A stretch of 64,000 nt of DNA. Source: a virus. Shown one piece after another: positions 9,567 to 34,099 of the stretch; positions within the stretch are counted from its first letter, which is position 1, and every line of letters starts with the position of its first letter. The notes beneath the pieces were generated by a model that was not told the origin of the DNA, searched no databases, and was given only the letters and a program-made list of their open reading frames with translations. Where the stretch lies: positions 6,541 through 70,540 of IMG/VR virus record IMGVR_UViG_3300034760_000060. One strand, written 5' to 3'. Position numbers and translations under genes: made by a program.

Positions 9567-9703
9567 GATCAGCTTTCAGTAAGTGCGCCAGGCGGCGCGG
9601 TTATTGGTGGGCGGTGCATTCACCACACGGCTGCCGACTGAATAATCCCGACGCTCGTCGGATGCCATTCGTCGGGCCAATCAGCAGCCGTGTGGTGGCT
9701 GGA

Positions 9704-10186
9704 TTACCCAGCCCTAGCAAATTCGCCGTGGTACTGCTTTGATGCTTTTTCATAAGCTACTTTTGCTGCCTCAAATTCGACAAAGTAGCCAAGGAACTTC
9801 TTTTTTCCGTCAACGTGAATTTGCGCATTCCACTTGCCCTCGCGCGCTGCCCAGCTCACTCCCTTGGTTCTGGATTTGCTGTCACTGCGTGGCGCTGCAT
9901 TCATTCGATTCTGCGAAGCTGTCACGGCTCTGAGATTTGCTATTCGGTTATCCGCACGGTTTCCATTAATATGGTCAATAATCTCCGGCAGTCCCCCATG
10001 CGTCAGAAGCCATGCAAGCCGATGCGCCTTGATCGTCTTTCCGGCGATCCCGAGGTGCACATACCCCTCCTGACTAACGTGACCTGCATGGGCCCCAACC
10101 CGAATCCCAGCGCGTGGCTTGATCCAGGTAAAAGCGCCTGTTATCGGGTCGTAAGACAGTCGCGGCTTGATTTTTTCGATATCCAT
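9704..10186 (-). CDS. HNH endonuclease with AP2 domain
   Basis: AHRLAW...IDHINGNRADNRIANLR...KGVSW...KWNAQI. Confidence 0.9.
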   Translation of the reverse strand: MDIEKIKPRLSYDPITGAFTWIKPRAGIRVGAHAGHVSQEGYVHLGIAGKTIKAHRLAWLLTHGGLPEIIDHINGNRADNRIANLRAVTASQNRMNAAPRSDSKSRTKGVSWAAREGKWNAQIHVDGKKKFLGYFVEFEAAKVAYEKASKQYHGEFARAG

Positions 10187-28252: not shown

Positions 28253-28503
28253 ATCAGACGCGACTCGGATCATTGATCGAAGCGGTCATCAATACTTGCA
28301 TCGGCTTCGGGATCAACTTCACAGCCAATATGTTCATTTTCCCGCTTTTCGGATTTCACATTACGCCGGGCGCAAACTTCGTCCTGGGCATGCTCTACAC
28401 AATCATCAGCGTTGTGCGATCGTACTGCATCCGACGATGGTTTAACGCCAAATTGCACAGCATGGCACAAGCCGTTGCCGCGCGCATGGAGGCTGGAAAA
28501 TGA
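28249..28503 (+). CDS. Small two-TM membrane protein
   Basis: QTRLGSLIEAVINTCIGF...RSYCIRRWF. Confidence 0.75.
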   Translation: MNQTRLGSLIEAVINTCIGFGINFTANMFIFPLFGFHITPGANFVLGMLYTIISVVRSYCIRRWFNAKLHSMAQAVAARMEAGK

Positions 28504-28928
28504 TCACCTTCACTATCCCCGGCCAGCCGGTTGCCAAGGGCCGCCCGAAGTTCGCGCGCCGTGGCGCCCATGTCGTCGCCTACACGCCGGAGAAGACCGC
28601 CAGCTATGAGAACTTGGTCAAGATGGCGGCGACTGAGGCGATGGGAGGCCTGGCCCCGAGCGGCGCTCCGATATACATGAGCATCGAGCTGCGCATGCAA
28701 ATTCCCGCAAGCTGGTCGGCCAAACGCCGCGCGCTGGCGGTGTTGGGGGAGGTTTTGCCAACGAAGAAGCCAGACGCCGACAACGTGCTGAAGGGAATCA
28801 AGGACGGGTGCAACGGAATTGTGTGGCGGGACGATGCTCAGGTCGTGCGGATTGGCTTGGCCAAGGTCTACGCAGATTCGCCATGCGCCATCGTGATCAT
28901 CACTGAAAGCGAAAAGGTCTCGGCATGA
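28500..28928 (+). CDS. rusA: RusA-family Holliday junction resolvase
   Basis: PVAKGRP...KPDADNVLKGIKDGCNGIVWRDDAQV. Confidence 0.92.
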   Translation: MITFTIPGQPVAKGRPKFARRGAHVVAYTPEKTASYENLVKMAATEAMGGLAPSGAPIYMSIELRMQIPASWSAKRRALAVLGEVLPTKKPDADNVLKGIKDGCNGIVWRDDAQVVRIGLAKVYADSPCAIVIITESEKVSA

Positions 28929-29353
28929 GCCGCCCTAAGCCCAAGCGCACGAAGGCCTACCATCCCAAGCCATGCGTGAAGCCGCTCGGGATGCGCCAAG
29001 CCTTGATGATGGAAATGCCGGGCTATGTTGCCTCCTTGGCGCTCGGCCTGCCGCACTTCTGCGAGCGGCACGTCTACGACCTGTTGAGCAACGCCGACTT
29101 GACGCGCCGGATCGCCCCGGACGGACATCCCATCCTGCCGATCGCAAAGGCCATGGTTCTGGCCATAGCCGAGATCCAGCACCGCGCGCAGGAGACGGAA
29201 AAAACCGAATGCACTGCGGGCGAATTGGCCGTGCTGCGTGAAGGCGTCGGTCGGACTATGGACTACCTACGGACGGTGCCGAACGTCGAGATATCGCGCG
29301 CTTCGGCAGCCGCCCTGGCGGAGTTCGACCGACTGGGGTGCTTGCGAGTATGA
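28925..29353 (+). CDS. Hypothetical protein
   Basis: 142 aa, coupled overlap. Confidence 0.7.
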   Translation: MSRPKPKRTKAYHPKPCVKPLGMRQALMMEMPGYVASLALGLPHFCERHVYDLLSNADLTRRIAPDGHPILPIAKAMVLAIAEIQHRAQETEKTECTAGELAVLREGVGRTMDYLRTVPNVEISRASAAALAEFDRLGCLRV

Positions 29354-29468
29354 ATGGGCGAGTTCGTCAAGCGATTTGGGCATTGCAGCGAAGAAAAATA
29401 GTTCCCATTGGACTCTTGTAAACTTGCAGCAATATGGTAAGGTGGGAAGGTCTTCTTGTGGGGAAACT

Positions 29469-30026
29469 ATGGGATTCGCTGAAAAACACCTTCAATCGCT
29501 CGGCTCATCCAATCTCATGGATGACTGCTTCCATCATCAAACCGATGCGCTGCAAGCGGCTGCGCGTGCCGACAAGTCTGCGCGCAACATCGGGTCGCTG
29601 CTTTCGCGCGTCAAGTACGCAGACGGGACGCTCGGCAAGCAGTTCGAGGGCAATGCCCAGAACTTGGCCGCCCTGTTGCGCGAATGGCTCGCCATCGTGA
29701 CGGAGAAGGGCACCGCGCGCCGCTGGGTCAAGCCCGAGGACATTGCAATCGCCCCGATCACGTTTCGCCGCGTGGCCAACGCCTCCCTGGCTCACTTCTT
29801 GGACGGCAAATGCGTGCAGTGCCACGGCACCGGCGTCGCCGAGAGCAAGCGCGCGTGCATTCCTTGCAAGGGCTCAGGGCAGATCGAATTGACCGGCCTG
29901 AGCGGCTACGAGGCAAAGCTGGTGCTCGACATGGTGTCTGAGCTGGGCGCCATCGAATCGACGCACGCAGCCATCGCAAGCGCACTGTTGCGTAAGCGCG
30001 ACCTGACGGCGGAAGAAATCGCATGA
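29469..30026 (+). CDS. Q-like late antitermination protein
   Basis: Last early gene before the late leader; CVQCHGTG...CIPCKGSG zinc finger. Confidence 0.65.
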   Translation: MGFAEKHLQSLGSSNLMDDCFHHQTDALQAAARADKSARNIGSLLSRVKYADGTLGKQFEGNAQNLAALLREWLAIVTEKGTARRWVKPEDIAIAPITFRRVANASLAHFLDGKCVQCHGTGVAESKRACIPCKGSGQIELTGLSGYEAKLVLDMVSELGAIESTHAAIASALLRKRDLTAEEIA

Positions 30027-30067: not shown

Positions 30068-30249
30068 CGACGTAACGTAAATTTCTCTCAGGCTTGTGCC
30101 AGACGCGAAAGCGACAACGACCCCTGAGACACATATAGTGCAAGCCTACCAACGGTTTCGCTCGCACTGAAATTTACGAGTTGCCGTCGCACGTAGTACC
30201 CCGCAGATAGCGGGGACGAACCCGGAAGCCACCCTTGAGGTGGCTTTTT
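30068..30249 (+). ncRNA. Structured late-leader RNA (lambda 6S/tR'-like) ending in an intrinsic terminator
   Basis: CGTAAATTT(30076)/AAATTTACG(30170) and TCTCAGG(30086)/CCTGAGA(30123) stems, GAAA tetraloop, terminator GCCACC-CTTGA-GGTGGC-TTTTT. Confidence 0.55.
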
Positions 30250-30267
30250 GCATTTAGCAAGGATTTT

Positions 30268-30492
30268 ATGCGCTTCTACGAACAGGTTTTCGATGGGCGC
30301 ACGATTATCTGCGCCGATCTTGTTGCACGCGCCGATGTGCAAGGCGATCGCGTCATTCGGGATATCGATGCGGATTGCTGGATCGATGCTAAGCGCAAGC
30401 TCGGGTACATGCTGAGCGCCGTGCAAGAGTGGTTGCTGGATGAGTTCTACGCCAAGCGCGCCCGGTCCGGACGCGTTGATCTGAACGCATAA
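30268..30492 (+). CDS. Hypothetical protein
   Basis: AAGGA RBS, MRFYEQVFDG... Confidence 0.6.
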   Translation: MRFYEQVFDGRTIICADLVARADVQGDRVIRDIDADCWIDAKRKLGYMLSAVQEWLLDEFYAKRARSGRVDLNA

Positions 30493-30804
30493 TGAAATGC
30501 TGGCGAAGCGACCGCGTGCACATACCGCGTCGATTAGCTGGCGAAGGAGGTGCGCCATGACGTAGCTCCACGTTCCACCGCAATGAAGCCCTCGCAAGAG
30601 GCCAGTCGGGTTGATCTCCGGTTGCTGTAGTACGGGCAAAATAGGCCGCCAGATGCGACCCGTCATCGATCAGGCCGACCAACGTCGAAGTTTATACGCA
30701 GGAAACAGTCGAGCGTCCGCCTGACAGCGGCGCTGCCCCGGAATGCGCCCCATATGGGTTGTTGCGTTCCACGACGCCGGACGCTGTAACCGGCACCAGT
30801 TTTA

Positions 30805-30892
30805 GGTAGCATGGCTGAGAGGCCGAAAGCAACGGCTTGCTAAGCCGCACGGTCGAAAGGCCGCCCAGGTTCGAATCCTGGTGCTACCGCCA
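30805..30892 (+). tRNA. tRNA-Ser (GCT)
   Basis: Acceptor GGTAGCA/TGCTACC, anticodon loop TT-GCT-AA, long variable arm, GGTTCGAATCC, G discriminator and CCA. Confidence 0.9.
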
Positions 30893-30898
30893 GTTCAA

Positions 30899-30987
30899 GG
30901 AAGATTGGCCGAGTGGTCGAAGGCACTGGTCTTGAAAACCAGCAGGTGTAACAGCCTCGGGAGTTCGAATCTACCCATCTTCCGCCA
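30899..30987 (+). tRNA. tRNA-Ser (TGA)
   Basis: Acceptor GGAAGAT/ATCTTCC, CTGGT-CTTGAAA-ACCAG, variable arm, TTCGAAT, GCCA; one extra A in the T stem. Confidence 0.85.
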
Positions 30988-30989
30988 CT

Positions 30990-31523
30990 TTCGTACCCGC
31001 CGCGCCGATAGCGACGCGCGCCGGGTTGAGCAACCACCCAGGTGCTGCTGACCGAGCTCGCGGACGCGCGCGCGACGAAGCAGCCGACTCCCTCACGAAA
31101 CGAGGGGCAACACGCATGATGATTGCAAAGCCGCGCTTAAATGCGCACCAGCACCGGACTAATAACCCGAGCAATCGTCATCCGTGTTGATGAATGCGCC
31201 TAGCTGGCGCGACGCAAAGCTAGTCTGTCGTGATGCGACTCGACGAGGATGTGCTGACCGAGAATGCGCATAGGTCAGTGCTGGTTCCCGGCTCGTTGGA
31301 TGGGCCTGCCCCAAGGCGAAAGCCAATATCACAGCCGGGTCGCGCCGGCCATCAACAAATGCGCAGTGATGATGCGCGACGAAGGCAGCGGGGTGACCCG
31401 CGAGAAATCGACACCGGATAAAGAACACCAGCCATCGGGCTGGAAGGCAGCGGGCACCGGACCCGCTTCGGGCCGCGCCATGGCCTGATAGTTTAGGTCA
31501 AGCCGGGATCATCGCCGGCACCA
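30990..31523 (+). ncRNA. Candidate large structured RNA after the tRNAs
   Basis: Nested stems ACCAGCAC/GTGCTGGT and CCCGGCT/AGCCGGG, GAAA loops, repeated GAAGGCAGCGGG...ACCCGC, ends GCCGG-N8-CCGGC-ACCA. Confidence 0.45.
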
Positions 31524-31714
31524 ATCTCCCTCAGGGCGCTTCCCAGCGCTCTTCGCCGCTGCGCATACGCGACTGCGGCTCTTCTTATTCGAAGCCTCGA
31601 CCCTAGCCGGCCGGGGCTTTTTCGTTTCAACGCGCAGATAGGGTTGCAACCCGAAGGGCAGTTCGTCACTGCTTCTGCGCACCCATTTCAACGACGGCCA
31701 CTGACGAAGGAATT

Positions 31715-31954
31715 ATGGGCTACCTAAATCCGCTACTGAATTTACCTGCTGGGCGCGCGCTGCTACAGCTTCCCGCCGAAGACCGTAAGAGAGTTGAGGC
31801 AGTAATGCGCGACCTGCGTGACCAGGCCAACACCGAAGCAGAGAACGCATGGCGCCGCAGGAAAGGTCCGATGGCGGCGTATTGGCGTGCTGTATCAACT
31901 TACGCGCGGCACATGGCGCACGCACTATCGACCACCATCAAGGAAACTCCATGA
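31715..31954 (+). CDS. Conserved hypothetical phage protein
   Basis: AWRRRKGPMAAYWRAVSTYARH; AAGGA RBS. Confidence 0.75.
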   Translation: MGYLNPLLNLPAGRALLQLPAEDRKRVEAVMRDLRDQANTEAENAWRRRKGPMAAYWRAVSTYARHMAHALSTTIKETP

Positions 31955-32148
31955 TTCCCCGCCACTGGTACAGCCTGATTGTCCGCGCCGTAGAGGCCAA
32001 GGACGAGACGACGATCAACTCCCTGGCCCAGCACCTGTCCGAGTGCGCGAAGGCCAACGAGATCCTGCACGCTAAGGGATACGGCACATTGGGGCAGGGC
32101 ATTGCAGCAGTCGCCGCCCAGGTGCCGCACATGATGGGGCGCGAATGA
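31951..32148 (+). CDS. Hypothetical protein
   Basis: MIPRHWYSLIV..., coupled overlaps. Confidence 0.6.
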   Translation: MIPRHWYSLIVRAVEAKDETTINSLAQHLSECAKANEILHAKGYGTLGQGIAAVAAQVPHMMGRE

Positions 32149-32468
32149 ACGGCATCCAGAACCTCGACGCTTTGCCATGGGTCGATATGACGTACGCAAC
32201 CGCGCTCGATCTGCAAGCCCCGGCCAGCGGCACAGGGCCGGCGGTGAGCGAGACCAAGCGCGCGGTCAGCGAGATCGCCAAGATGCGCCGCGACCTTGAG
32301 CGGCGCCTGCAAGCGATGATCAACACCGAGCTCGGTGCATTCATTGATGCGACGGGCATGGCGGTCGACGCGCTGACCGTGAACATGCTGCGCAGTGAGA
32401 CGGTCGACGCCACGCGCCAGGTCGGCCGCATCCAGTCGGTCGTGCTCGATATCTCGGTGCGCCGGTAA
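32145..32468 (+). CDS. Hypothetical protein
   Basis: 107 aa, coupled overlap. Confidence 0.7.
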   Translation: MNGIQNLDALPWVDMTYATALDLQAPASGTGPAVSETKRAVSEIAKMRRDLERRLQAMINTELGAFIDATGMAVDALTVNMLRSETVDATRQVGRIQSVVLDISVRR

Positions 32469-33478: not shown

Positions 33479-34099
33479 ATGGCGCAGACCGACAAGGCTA
33501 CGCCGGACTGGGAGCGCATTGAGTCTGATTACCGGGCCGGGCTGCTGTCCGTCCGGGAAATCGCCGCACCCCAAGGCATCACCGAGGGGGCGGTCCGCAA
33601 GAGAGCAAAGCGCGACGCATGGACGCGCGACCTCGCGGCCAAGATCAAATCGAAGTCCGATGATCTGGTACGCAAGGAAGCAGTACGCAATGCGGTACGC
33701 ATCGAGCGCGCCGATACCGATGCCTTTGTCGTAGAGGCGAACGCTGAGGCAATCGCCGCTGTGCGTATCTCGCACCGAGGAGACATTGCACGCTTCCGTC
33801 GACTGGCGCGAAGCCTGCTGCGCGAGATCGAGATTGAGACCGAAAGCCTGGACCTGTTCGAGGAGCTGGGCGAGTTACTGCGCAGCGAGGACGACAAGGG
33901 GCAGGACAAGCGCAACGACATCTACCGCAAGGTGATCACCGGCGCATCCCGCGTCGACAGCATGAAGAAGCTCGCTGAGACGCTGAAAACGCTGATCGGG
34001 CTTGAGCGCGAGGCCTACAACATAGGTGAGGTCATGAAGCCATCGGATACGGACAGCGCGTCGCTGCTGCGGGAAATTGCATCCTGCCTGCCAGACTGA
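33479..34099 (+). CDS. terS: Terminase small subunit
   Basis: PDWERIESDYRAGLLSVREIA...TEGAVRKRAKRDAW HTH; directly before terL. Confidence 0.85.
   Translation: MAQTDKATPDWERIESDYRAGLLSVREIAAPQGITEGAVRKRAKRDAWTRDLAAKIKSKSDDLVRKEAVRNAVRIERADTDAFVVEANAEAIAAVRISHRGDIARFRRLARSLLREIEIETESLDLFEELGELLRSEDDKGQDKRNDIYRKVITGASRVDSMKKLAETLKTLIGLEREAYNIGEVMKPSDTDSASLLREIASCLPD

Follow-up and report, generated by a model that had tools for sequence, protein, structure and literature searches.

Two conserved, apparently undescribed RNA motifs in a tRNA-linked array at the head of a phage late operon

The DNA considered here is a stretch of 64,000 nucleotides (nt) of a prophage in a Massilia genome (positions 6,541 to 70,540 of IMG/VR record IMGVR_UViG_3300034760_000060; referred to below as the window). 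The leader of its late operon contains, on the + strand, a 1.2-kb region, beginning at position 30493, that had been predicted to be a cluster of structured RNAs around two transfer RNA (tRNA) genes. This region is an array of RNA genes made up, in this order, of an RNA motif that we call U, tRNA-Ser(GCU), tRNA-Ser(UGA), a second motif that we call H, a trailer, a second terminator and a structured 5' untranslated region (5'UTR), placed between a terminator 3' of a zinc-finger (Zn-finger) gene and the first late gene. Comparison of sequences shows U and H to be base-paired RNA structures, specific to one strand and conserved in many phages of Burkholderiaceae (here and below in the GTDB sense), and they recur beside each other and beside tRNA genes. 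The predicted cluster is thus borne out by the conservation and covariation of U and H, and the suggestion of a new noncoding RNA class by the finding of at least two conserved, covarying RNA families with no entry in Rfam 15. Covariation in homologues, on which the original prediction had been set beforehand to stand or fall, was found for both motifs.

Architecture and covariation of the U and H motifs

The U-motif RNA (30587-30798, + strand) was delimited with the covariance model R1, a shared 5' domain, a conserved terminal hairpin (P2) and covariation; U motifs range in size from about 75 to 210 nt. Upstream of P2 they have two hairpins: P0, which reads CUGGC-AUCG-GCCAG in the most frequent type, and P1, which is bipartite and abuts P2. 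The core in the window (30694-30799) is matched by R1 at 32.9 bits (E about 1e-6 to 1e-5); the outer stem of P1 pairs GUCG (30708-30711) with CGAC (30772-30775), and the invariant P2, GCCGG-ACGCUGUAA-CCGGC (30776-30794), is followed by ACCA. The 5' domain (30587-30693), formed of a CCUC-GCAA-GAGG hairpin and the block GUAGUACGGG...GAUGCGACCCGUCAUCGA...GGCCGACC, is a longer version common to the window and to three representatives of other genera (G066, G183 and G092).

In a family-level search with 30493-30804, the P2 hairpin was recovered at 89-100% identity, with unrelated flanks, in six genomes of other genera. The exact P2 18-mer, GCCGGACGCTGTAACCGG, is present in at least 120 IMG/VR contigs, again with unrelated flanks, and in 9 of 400 sampled Burkholderiaceae genomes; none of 400 genomes sampled elsewhere in the class has it. 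A blastn search of 50,697 GenBank phage records gave no match to canonical U; GenBank phages yielded P2 variants alone: GCCGG-AUGACGUAA-CCGGC in Burkholderia phage phi644-2 and GCCGG-AACCCGUAA-CCGGC in BcepIL02, natural variants that keep the stem and GUAA and lie, in both phages, in unannotated intergenic DNA. When 42 U sequences were aligned with MAFFT, without fitting to the structure, 96.8% of the cells were paired (26-39% with slid partners), and one P1 pair showed all four Watson-Crick types (AU 19, CG 8, GC 6 and UA 6). Of the cells in 98 sequences aligned to R1, 95.5% were paired (16-43% with slid partners); compensatory changes affected 12 of the 18 pairs, and both sides had changed in 138 cells versus 33 in shuffles. 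G-U pairs in U and H identify the + strand as the folded strand. Folding of 30493-30804 was no better than that of shuffles (z = +0.3), and its sequence is conserved all the same. Two further readings of P2 were rejected: a pseudoknot between a CAG 5' of P1 and the CUG of the P2 loop, the only natural loop variant (CUC, in G092) being uncompensated, and a -10 promoter element, for which the key A2 and T6 positions were missing on inspection.

Two kinds of protein gene were observed near U in viral contigs. In 13 viral loci (L077:9189-9617 and 12 others; about 1010-1442 in L004), a gene for a member of a family of 142-amino acid proteins lies 120-330 nt upstream of U. W41 is invariant in this family and C40 nearly so, the AlphaFold2 confidence score (pLDDT) was 47, there was no Pfam or PHROG match and all 91 homologues are named 'hypothetical'; the family may be a late regulator. 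In another viral contig, the gene for a homologue of Acb3, an inhibitor of CBASS (cyclic oligonucleotide-based antiphage signalling system), precedes a U motif by about 0.6-1.5 kb (L136:12109-12963; Pfam PF25187, E = 1e-66).

The H-motif RNA unit (31078-31523, + strand) was delimited with model R2, covariation and the alignment of its terminal hairpin, and H units measure about 105-450 nt. A hairpin of 5 base pairs (bp), H1 (31088-31106), directly abuts a long hairpin of 19 bp, H2 (arms 31108-31126 and 31171-31189), and in most units H2 is followed by a GAAUGCGC...UGAUGCGC hairpin, then by a variable segment and finally by a terminal hairpin. These parts correspond in the window to the GAAUGCGC hairpin (31192-31216), a window-specific expansion (31217-31495) and the terminal hairpin (31502-31519), with ACCA at 31520-31523 (all + strand). 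The expansion contains two further copies of AAUGCGC (31263 and 31358), giving three in the H unit, and RATGCGC is clustered, with five copies in 238 nt versus about 0.1 expected from its window-wide frequency. The direct repeat reported earlier, GAAGGCAGCGGG, was recovered as a 12-nt repeat at 31381 and 31443. A hairpin at 31428-31443 (CCAGCC-AUCG-GGCUGG) resembles P0, with the same AUCG loop, a sign that sequences may have been exchanged or duplicated between U and H. A candidate 'second, degenerate U core' at 31413-31524 was rejected, as it scored 13-15 bits and, with the filters off, the match no longer covered the terminal hairpin. A comparison of the middle of the region with phage phi644-2 was likewise dropped, since the terminal hairpin and the AAUGCGC...UGAUGCGCGAC hairpin were all that the two had in common. 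The predicted long-range stem joining 31147 and 31278 can be formed in this sequence; the conserved hairpin H2 contains its 5' arm, and the relatives that retain this arm lack the 3' partner.

R2 matches 31078-31196 at 131 bits, the sequence itself being in the seed, and it identified 16 non-seed copies with E < 2e-5; scans of genome and metagenome collections for exact H patterns gave no loci beyond those already known. Five relatives alone yielded seven compensatory pairs. In the full alignment (21 sequences), 94.5% of cells were paired and 22 of 24 pairs showed compensatory changes, with a covariation score of 0.589 versus 0.18 for shuffles and at most 0.12 for slid controls. Folding of 30988-31523 was better than that of all 100 shuffles (z = -3.3). 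In a majority of the viral loci holding both motifs, the distance from U downstream to H is 0-400 nt. The prophage has a second H copy at 9617-9723 on the - strand (R2 31.9 bits, E about 1e-6), directly after an open reading frame (ORF) read by eye as an HNH/AP2-type endonuclease and with the downstream flank GAAUGCACCGCCCACCAAUAACC; H is therefore found in two oppositely oriented operons of one prophage.

The apical part of H2 varies between 30 and 87 nt in the 21-sequence alignment, and in certain phages it contains canonical D- and T-arm sequences. H2 gives scores of 42.1 bits (L105) and 41.4 bits (L082) with the Rfam tRNA model, and in L082 and L038 the tRNA called by ARAGORN covers the entire H2. 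To judge from these sequences, H2 looks like a tRNA whose leader and trailer pair with each other, lengthening the acceptor helix.

The pair of matching modules that first drew attention to the region was found where predicted, GCCGG-ACGCTGTAA-CCGGC-ACCA at 30776-30798 and GCCGG-GATCATCG-CCGGC-ACCA at 31502-31523, with 6 nt between the ACCA end of module 1 and the start of tRNA-Ser(GCU). The pattern GCCGGN{6,12}CCGGCACCA, picked post hoc, has exactly two matches in the 64 kb versus about 0.01 expected from shuffles. By sequence comparison, the modules are paralogous 3'-terminal hairpins of two different conserved RNA units. They have in common a 5-bp GC stem and, in this phage, an ACCA flank, with loops of 8-9 nt that differ in sequence. 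Module 1 is P2 of U, and module 2 (AAGCCGG-GAUCAUCG-CCGGC-ACCA) aligns with the H terminal hairpin of other units (AAGCCGG-(A/G)GAUCAGCG-CCGGCC-R-CCA-CAAC; short form GGUUGGG-NGUU-CCCGGCC-R-CCA), which is why the H unit is taken to extend over 31078-31523. The modules had been likened to a T-arm; this likeness did not hold, as no T-loop motif (UUCRANY) is present in the loops of U (ACGCUGUAA) or H (GAUCAUCG or (A/G)GAUCAGCG), and T-loops are confined to the H2 apical domain of certain other phages. The encoded CCA that was also proposed is kept in H (R-CCA in about 15 of 19, R-CCG in the remainder) and not in U, in which the consensus 3' of P2 is C-A-(C/A)-N-(A/C)-A.

tRNA genes, trailer and setting of the array

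Both tRNA genes belong to RF00005, scoring above its gathering threshold: tRNA-Ser with anticodon GCU (30805-30892, + strand; 56.2 bits) and tRNA-Ser with anticodon UGA (30899-30987, + strand; 37.5 bits), each also called by ARAGORN. The former is 86% identical to tRNA-Ser(GCU) of the tRNA array in a Massilia polaris prophage. No tRNA match was found in the flanks of the two genes at E up to 10. Linkage to tRNA genes is a family trait: of 117 loci with a U hairpin, 22 have tRNA genes no more than 1.5 kb from it, in every case on its strand, and a tRNA starts 10-13 nt after P2 in six listed rows, four of which are near-identical tRNA-Gly loci.

Several tRNA-related RNAs were observed at or beside the positions of U and H in other loci. 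The Massilia rubra genome (G016) has, in place of the 3' domain of the window's H, an ARAGORN-negative tRNA-like RNA (L002:1392-1520, - strand) with a T-arm (AUGGG-UUCGAAU-CCCAU), a 7 + 5 bp acceptor-like helix (GUUGGCG...CGCCAAC) and ACCA. In G066, a pseudo-tRNA (L031:1690-1790, - strand) with a CAU anticodon loop and the T-arm CCGG-UUCGAUU-CCGG takes the place of P2 directly upstream of tRNA-Ser(GCU), its CCGG stem being common with P2. Neither ARAGORN nor Rfam found a transfer-messenger RNA (tmRNA) in the window; an IMG/VR contig encodes a permuted, two-piece tmRNA of the betaproteobacterial type some 180 nt 3' of an H unit (L135:5873-6206; Rfam beta_tmRNA 127 bits, tmRNA_permuted 121 bits), and this is the only viral locus with a tmRNA beside H.

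On the left, the + strand encodes RusA (28500-28928) and a possibly Q-like Zn-finger protein (29238-30026), followed by a strong intrinsic terminator, read from the sequence as GAAGCCACC-CTTGAG-GGTGGCTT and a T-run (30226-30250, + strand), which forms the left border of the array. This terminator is kept at 83-93% in M. rubra, M. polaris and one metagenomic phage contig, where the next element is an H unit, a tRNA array or a moron ORF. In the window, the ORF list places a small + strand ORF of about 75 amino acids (30269-30492) behind it; this ORF has no Pfam or PHROG match and is missing from the nearest relatives, G016 fusing the terminator straight to a homologue of 31014 onward, and by appearance it looks like a moron. 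On the right lie small late genes, with the first ATG at 31715 and the terminase small subunit at 33479-34099. The description of the region as 'nearly ORF-free' was loose, as ORFs of 50-190 amino acids are open on both strands; the sole frame checked, a candidate peptide gene at 31118 (MMIAK...), was rejected because an indel breaks it in the nearest relative, M. rubra.

Related genomes and viral contigs show the region to be a mosaic of blocks recurring in varied combinations. In M. rubra, the terminator is followed by a homologue of 31014-31197, the tRNA-like remnant and a homologue of 31513-31589; in M. polaris, seven tRNAs occupy the corresponding slot; G066 has nearly the whole arrangement, but one tRNA-Ser.

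The trailer (31524-31597, + strand) consists of AUCUCCCUC, a hairpin a (GGGCGCU-UCCC-AGCGCUC) and a terminator-like hairpin b (GCCGC...GCGGC followed by UCUUCUUAUU), its 5' end being AUCUCCC. Trailers directly follow the CCA of the last tRNA, the U hairpin or the H hairpin in G022, L013, G016, G066, G000:C179 and many viral loci, a UCUCC trailer following P2 in 23 of 116 loci; their stems, read from printed sequences, vary between copies. Elsewhere in the genome that carries this prophage, a second trailer copy (contig C179, L010:1501-1574) has 82% identity to 31524-31597 and immediately precedes an ORF; the gene downstream of it is 87% identical to 31949-32150 of the window, and this copy probably belongs to another prophage. 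Downstream of the trailer, a block (31596-31714) is kept at 80-90% in four prophage copies (two in G024, one each in G066 and G125) and contains the second terminator (about 31596-31625, + strand). The predicted three-way junction (GCGCAGA/TCTGCGC; 31632-31680, + strand) was confirmed in this block: RNAalifold, applied to four sequences, gave 34 pairs, five of them compensatory, including a change from AU to GC in the closing stem of the junction. In the 5'UTR, a hairpin pairs CAUUUC with the GAAGGA Shine-Dalgarno region before the ATG at 31715.

Possible modes of action

From its sequence and layout, we consider it an evenly balanced proposition that one precursor of the whole array is made and then matured in the manner of a tRNA operon, releasing U and H as stable RNAs. 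A single transcript would cover the array, and the tRNA-processing machinery of the host would cut it, with RNase P acting at the 5' end of each tRNA and the 3' ends being formed by RNase E or exonucleases. In this way U and H would be set free as stable small RNAs, their 3' ends shielded by the GC hairpin, and H would end in a tRNA-like R-CCA tail. H may have descended from, or may mimic, a tRNA with a lengthened acceptor helix, and contact with tRNA-binding host or defence factors is therefore the most natural guess.

Several observations weigh against this account. The apical domain of H2 in the window itself is cut down to 44 nt and has lost all tRNA-like features. In U, NCCA directly follows P2 in 12 of 116 loci, no more than in shuffles, and CCA lies within 8 nt in 31 versus 24 expected. 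In 25 of 116 loci, a Shine-Dalgarno sequence with an ATG lies 15-25 nt beyond the U hairpin, an arrangement as compatible with a cis-acting element of the 5'UTR as with a free RNA, and terminator-like sites are enriched around P2 (at -400 to -100 and 0 to +100), which fits a regulatory leader equally well. The large U and H alignments were fitted to the models, and the invariance of P2 is a consequence of the search design. None of the RNA runs searched contained the window region or a consensus U locus, and we therefore infer co-transcription, processing and stability.

A real, if lesser, possibility is that U, H or both act in cis on the nascent late transcript, either by put-like resistance to terminators or as stems for RNase III-type processing or stability, and that they would thereby let transcription or expression pass the two or three leader terminators into a late operon of roughly 20 kb. 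A stem of 19 bp, such as that of H2, has the size of an RNase III substrate; the elements lie in a late leader among intrinsic terminators, with terminator-like sites enriched around P2 and U often immediately 5' of a ribosome-binding site; and the two hairpins that make up H directly abut each other. The regulators upstream differ (the Zn-finger gene in the window, the 142-amino acid family in 13 viral loci, other ORFs elsewhere) and U is constant, which would suit a conserved host target, such as RNA polymerase. The occurrence of H twice in the prophage, in opposite operons (31078-31196, + strand; 9617-9723, - strand), recalls putL and putR (PMC9378689). However, H follows a terminator by 16-20 nt in G016 and G035 rather than preceding it, the order of U and H is interchangeable and tRNA genes may intervene, so that the elements resemble the genes of an array more than position-dependent signals. 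Some H2 hairpins contain tRNA-like domains, and U and H have no sequence similarity to put.

The hairpins might also act as DNA, whether as recombination linkers that generate the mosaicism of phages, as integrase or homing sites used by tRNA cassettes, or as signals for packaging close to the terminase genes. Mosaic junctions do coincide with conserved blocks, look-alike hairpins bracket the tRNA genes and H in the window, the arms of H2 flank inserts that vary in size (30-87 nt) and content, and terminase genes (with HNH too in one case) lie 0.4-1.5 kb downstream in two annotated loci. We nevertheless consider this improbable, as G-U pairs and strand-specific compensatory changes indicate a single-stranded transcript of one strand; in addition, the elements are always on the strand of the adjacent tRNA genes, and no consistently adjacent integrase or homing endonuclease was noticed, without a systematic test. 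The same strand-specific G-U pairs and covariation make it less likely that the modules are what is left of tRNA genes that decayed as the phage tRNA array shrank, the rest of the spacer being functionless mosaic DNA. Relatives have intact tRNA arrays in the corresponding slot (the seven tRNAs of M. polaris; tRNA-Thr in L013), G016 and G066 have ARAGORN-negative tRNA-like remnants with canonical T-loops at corresponding positions, and the ACCA and spacer before tRNA-Ser(GCU) align with the 3' end of tRNA-Tyr in M. polaris. Yet local alignments of ten related tRNAs with both flanks were no better than shuffles (p = 0.15-0.98), by-eye matches of the flanks to tRNA-Tyr and tRNA-Thr being dropped after this test, and the flanks gave no sub-threshold tRNA matches at E up to 10. 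Decay cannot account for an identical 18-mer in at least 120 phage contigs, or for compensatory changes in P0, P1, H1 and H2; covariation and conservation largely refute it, and we regard it as very improbable.

The release of U and H from a tRNA-like precursor can be extended to a broader proposal, which is speculative and, taken as a whole, rather doubtful. U and H would be two new trans-acting phage RNA classes matured by the host tRNA machinery. H would be a CCA-tailed tRNA mimic engaging tRNA-binding factors (anticodon nucleases, the CCA-adding enzyme or RNase P), or else U or H would be a put-like reprogrammer of RNA polymerase. Together with tRNAs, tmRNA and the toxic-small-RNA-like unit, they would make up a modular 'RNA cassette array' opening the late operon in Burkholderiaceae phages.

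Relation to known RNAs and significance

GOLLD (RF01998) and ROOL (RF03087) are large phage-associated RNAs often found beside tRNA genes, and the original prediction had pointed to them. Like these RNAs, U and H are phage-borne, often adjacent to tRNA genes and found by comparative genomics; unlike them, they are smaller, have an unrelated architecture and match neither model. A cmscan of the window at gathering thresholds gave the two tRNAs only, with no GOLLD, ROOL or other Rfam 15 class, and the same search of 30200-32000 at E up to 10 added matches at chance level only. Rfam 15 found nothing but tRNA, tmRNA and RF02278 in 22 related loci, and a full-text literature search for the P2 signature sequence found no paper. 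The tRNAs and terminators of the array are ordinary. U and H, by these comparisons, are apparently undescribed motif families of a known general kind, the phage-borne, tRNA-linked structured RNAs. This kind includes stable non-tRNA RNAs in phage tRNA clusters, T4 'species 1' and 'species 2', and the phage non-tRNA RNase P substrates phi80 M3 RNA and P1/P7 C4 RNA. As generally described, these RNAs are structured, lie among phage tRNA genes or are processed by the tRNA machinery, and end in a stem and a CCA-like sequence, in all of which they resemble the present motifs. U and H differ from them in belonging to the late-operon leader of temperate Burkholderiaceae phages and in that CCA is kept for H only. 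The bacterial Y RNA-like YrlA is a tRNA mimic on a long stem, and the H2 of some phages is similar in placing a tRNA-like D-arm/T-arm domain on a long helix formed by its flanks; however, there was no Rfam Y-RNA or YrlA match, and H2 in the window is without a tRNA-like domain.

The put RNA of phage HK022 is a cis-acting antiterminator of about 70 nt with two stem-loops, known from about ten sequences only; putL and putR lie downstream of PL and PR (PMC9378689). It resembles the present elements as a phage leader RNA of adjacent hairpins, in two copies per phage in different operons (as is the case for H) and with terminators downstream. It differs in lying just downstream of early promoters, whereas H has a long hairpin, variable and at times tRNA-like inserts, and a 3' R-CCA hairpin. 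What defines a put-type element is the binding of the nascent RNA to the zinc-binding domain of the RNA polymerase beta' subunit and the suppression of terminators; the comparison of U and H with put concerns architecture and position alone. A different likeness concerns the trailer (31524-31597) and neither U nor H. RF02278, a Betaproteobacteria toxic small RNA, is expressed in Burkholderia cenocepacia (PMC4603805), and it shares with the trailer a layout in which a UGUCUCCUCC 5' end is followed by a hairpin, by GAUUC and by a terminator. Trailers of relatives match its model at 40.0, 36.4 and 29.9 bits, all below the gathering score of 50, so that the relation, judged on sequence, is one of resemblance and not of membership. 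The trailer of the window has diverged too far to score, giving no match at E up to 10.

The temperate phages of soil Burkholderiaceae thus have a conserved slot that collects tRNAs, tRNA-like RNAs, tmRNA and small RNAs, and it is marked by two widespread, covarying and apparently undescribed RNA motifs. The motifs or close variants of them are present in cultivable hosts and phages, namely Massilia rubra CCM 8692, M. polaris RP-1-19 and the Burkholderia phages phi644-2 and BcepIL02, and their function is therefore directly testable. If U and H do prove to be tRNA mimics or modifiers of RNA polymerase, they would have a bearing on phage counter-defence or on the control of late genes.

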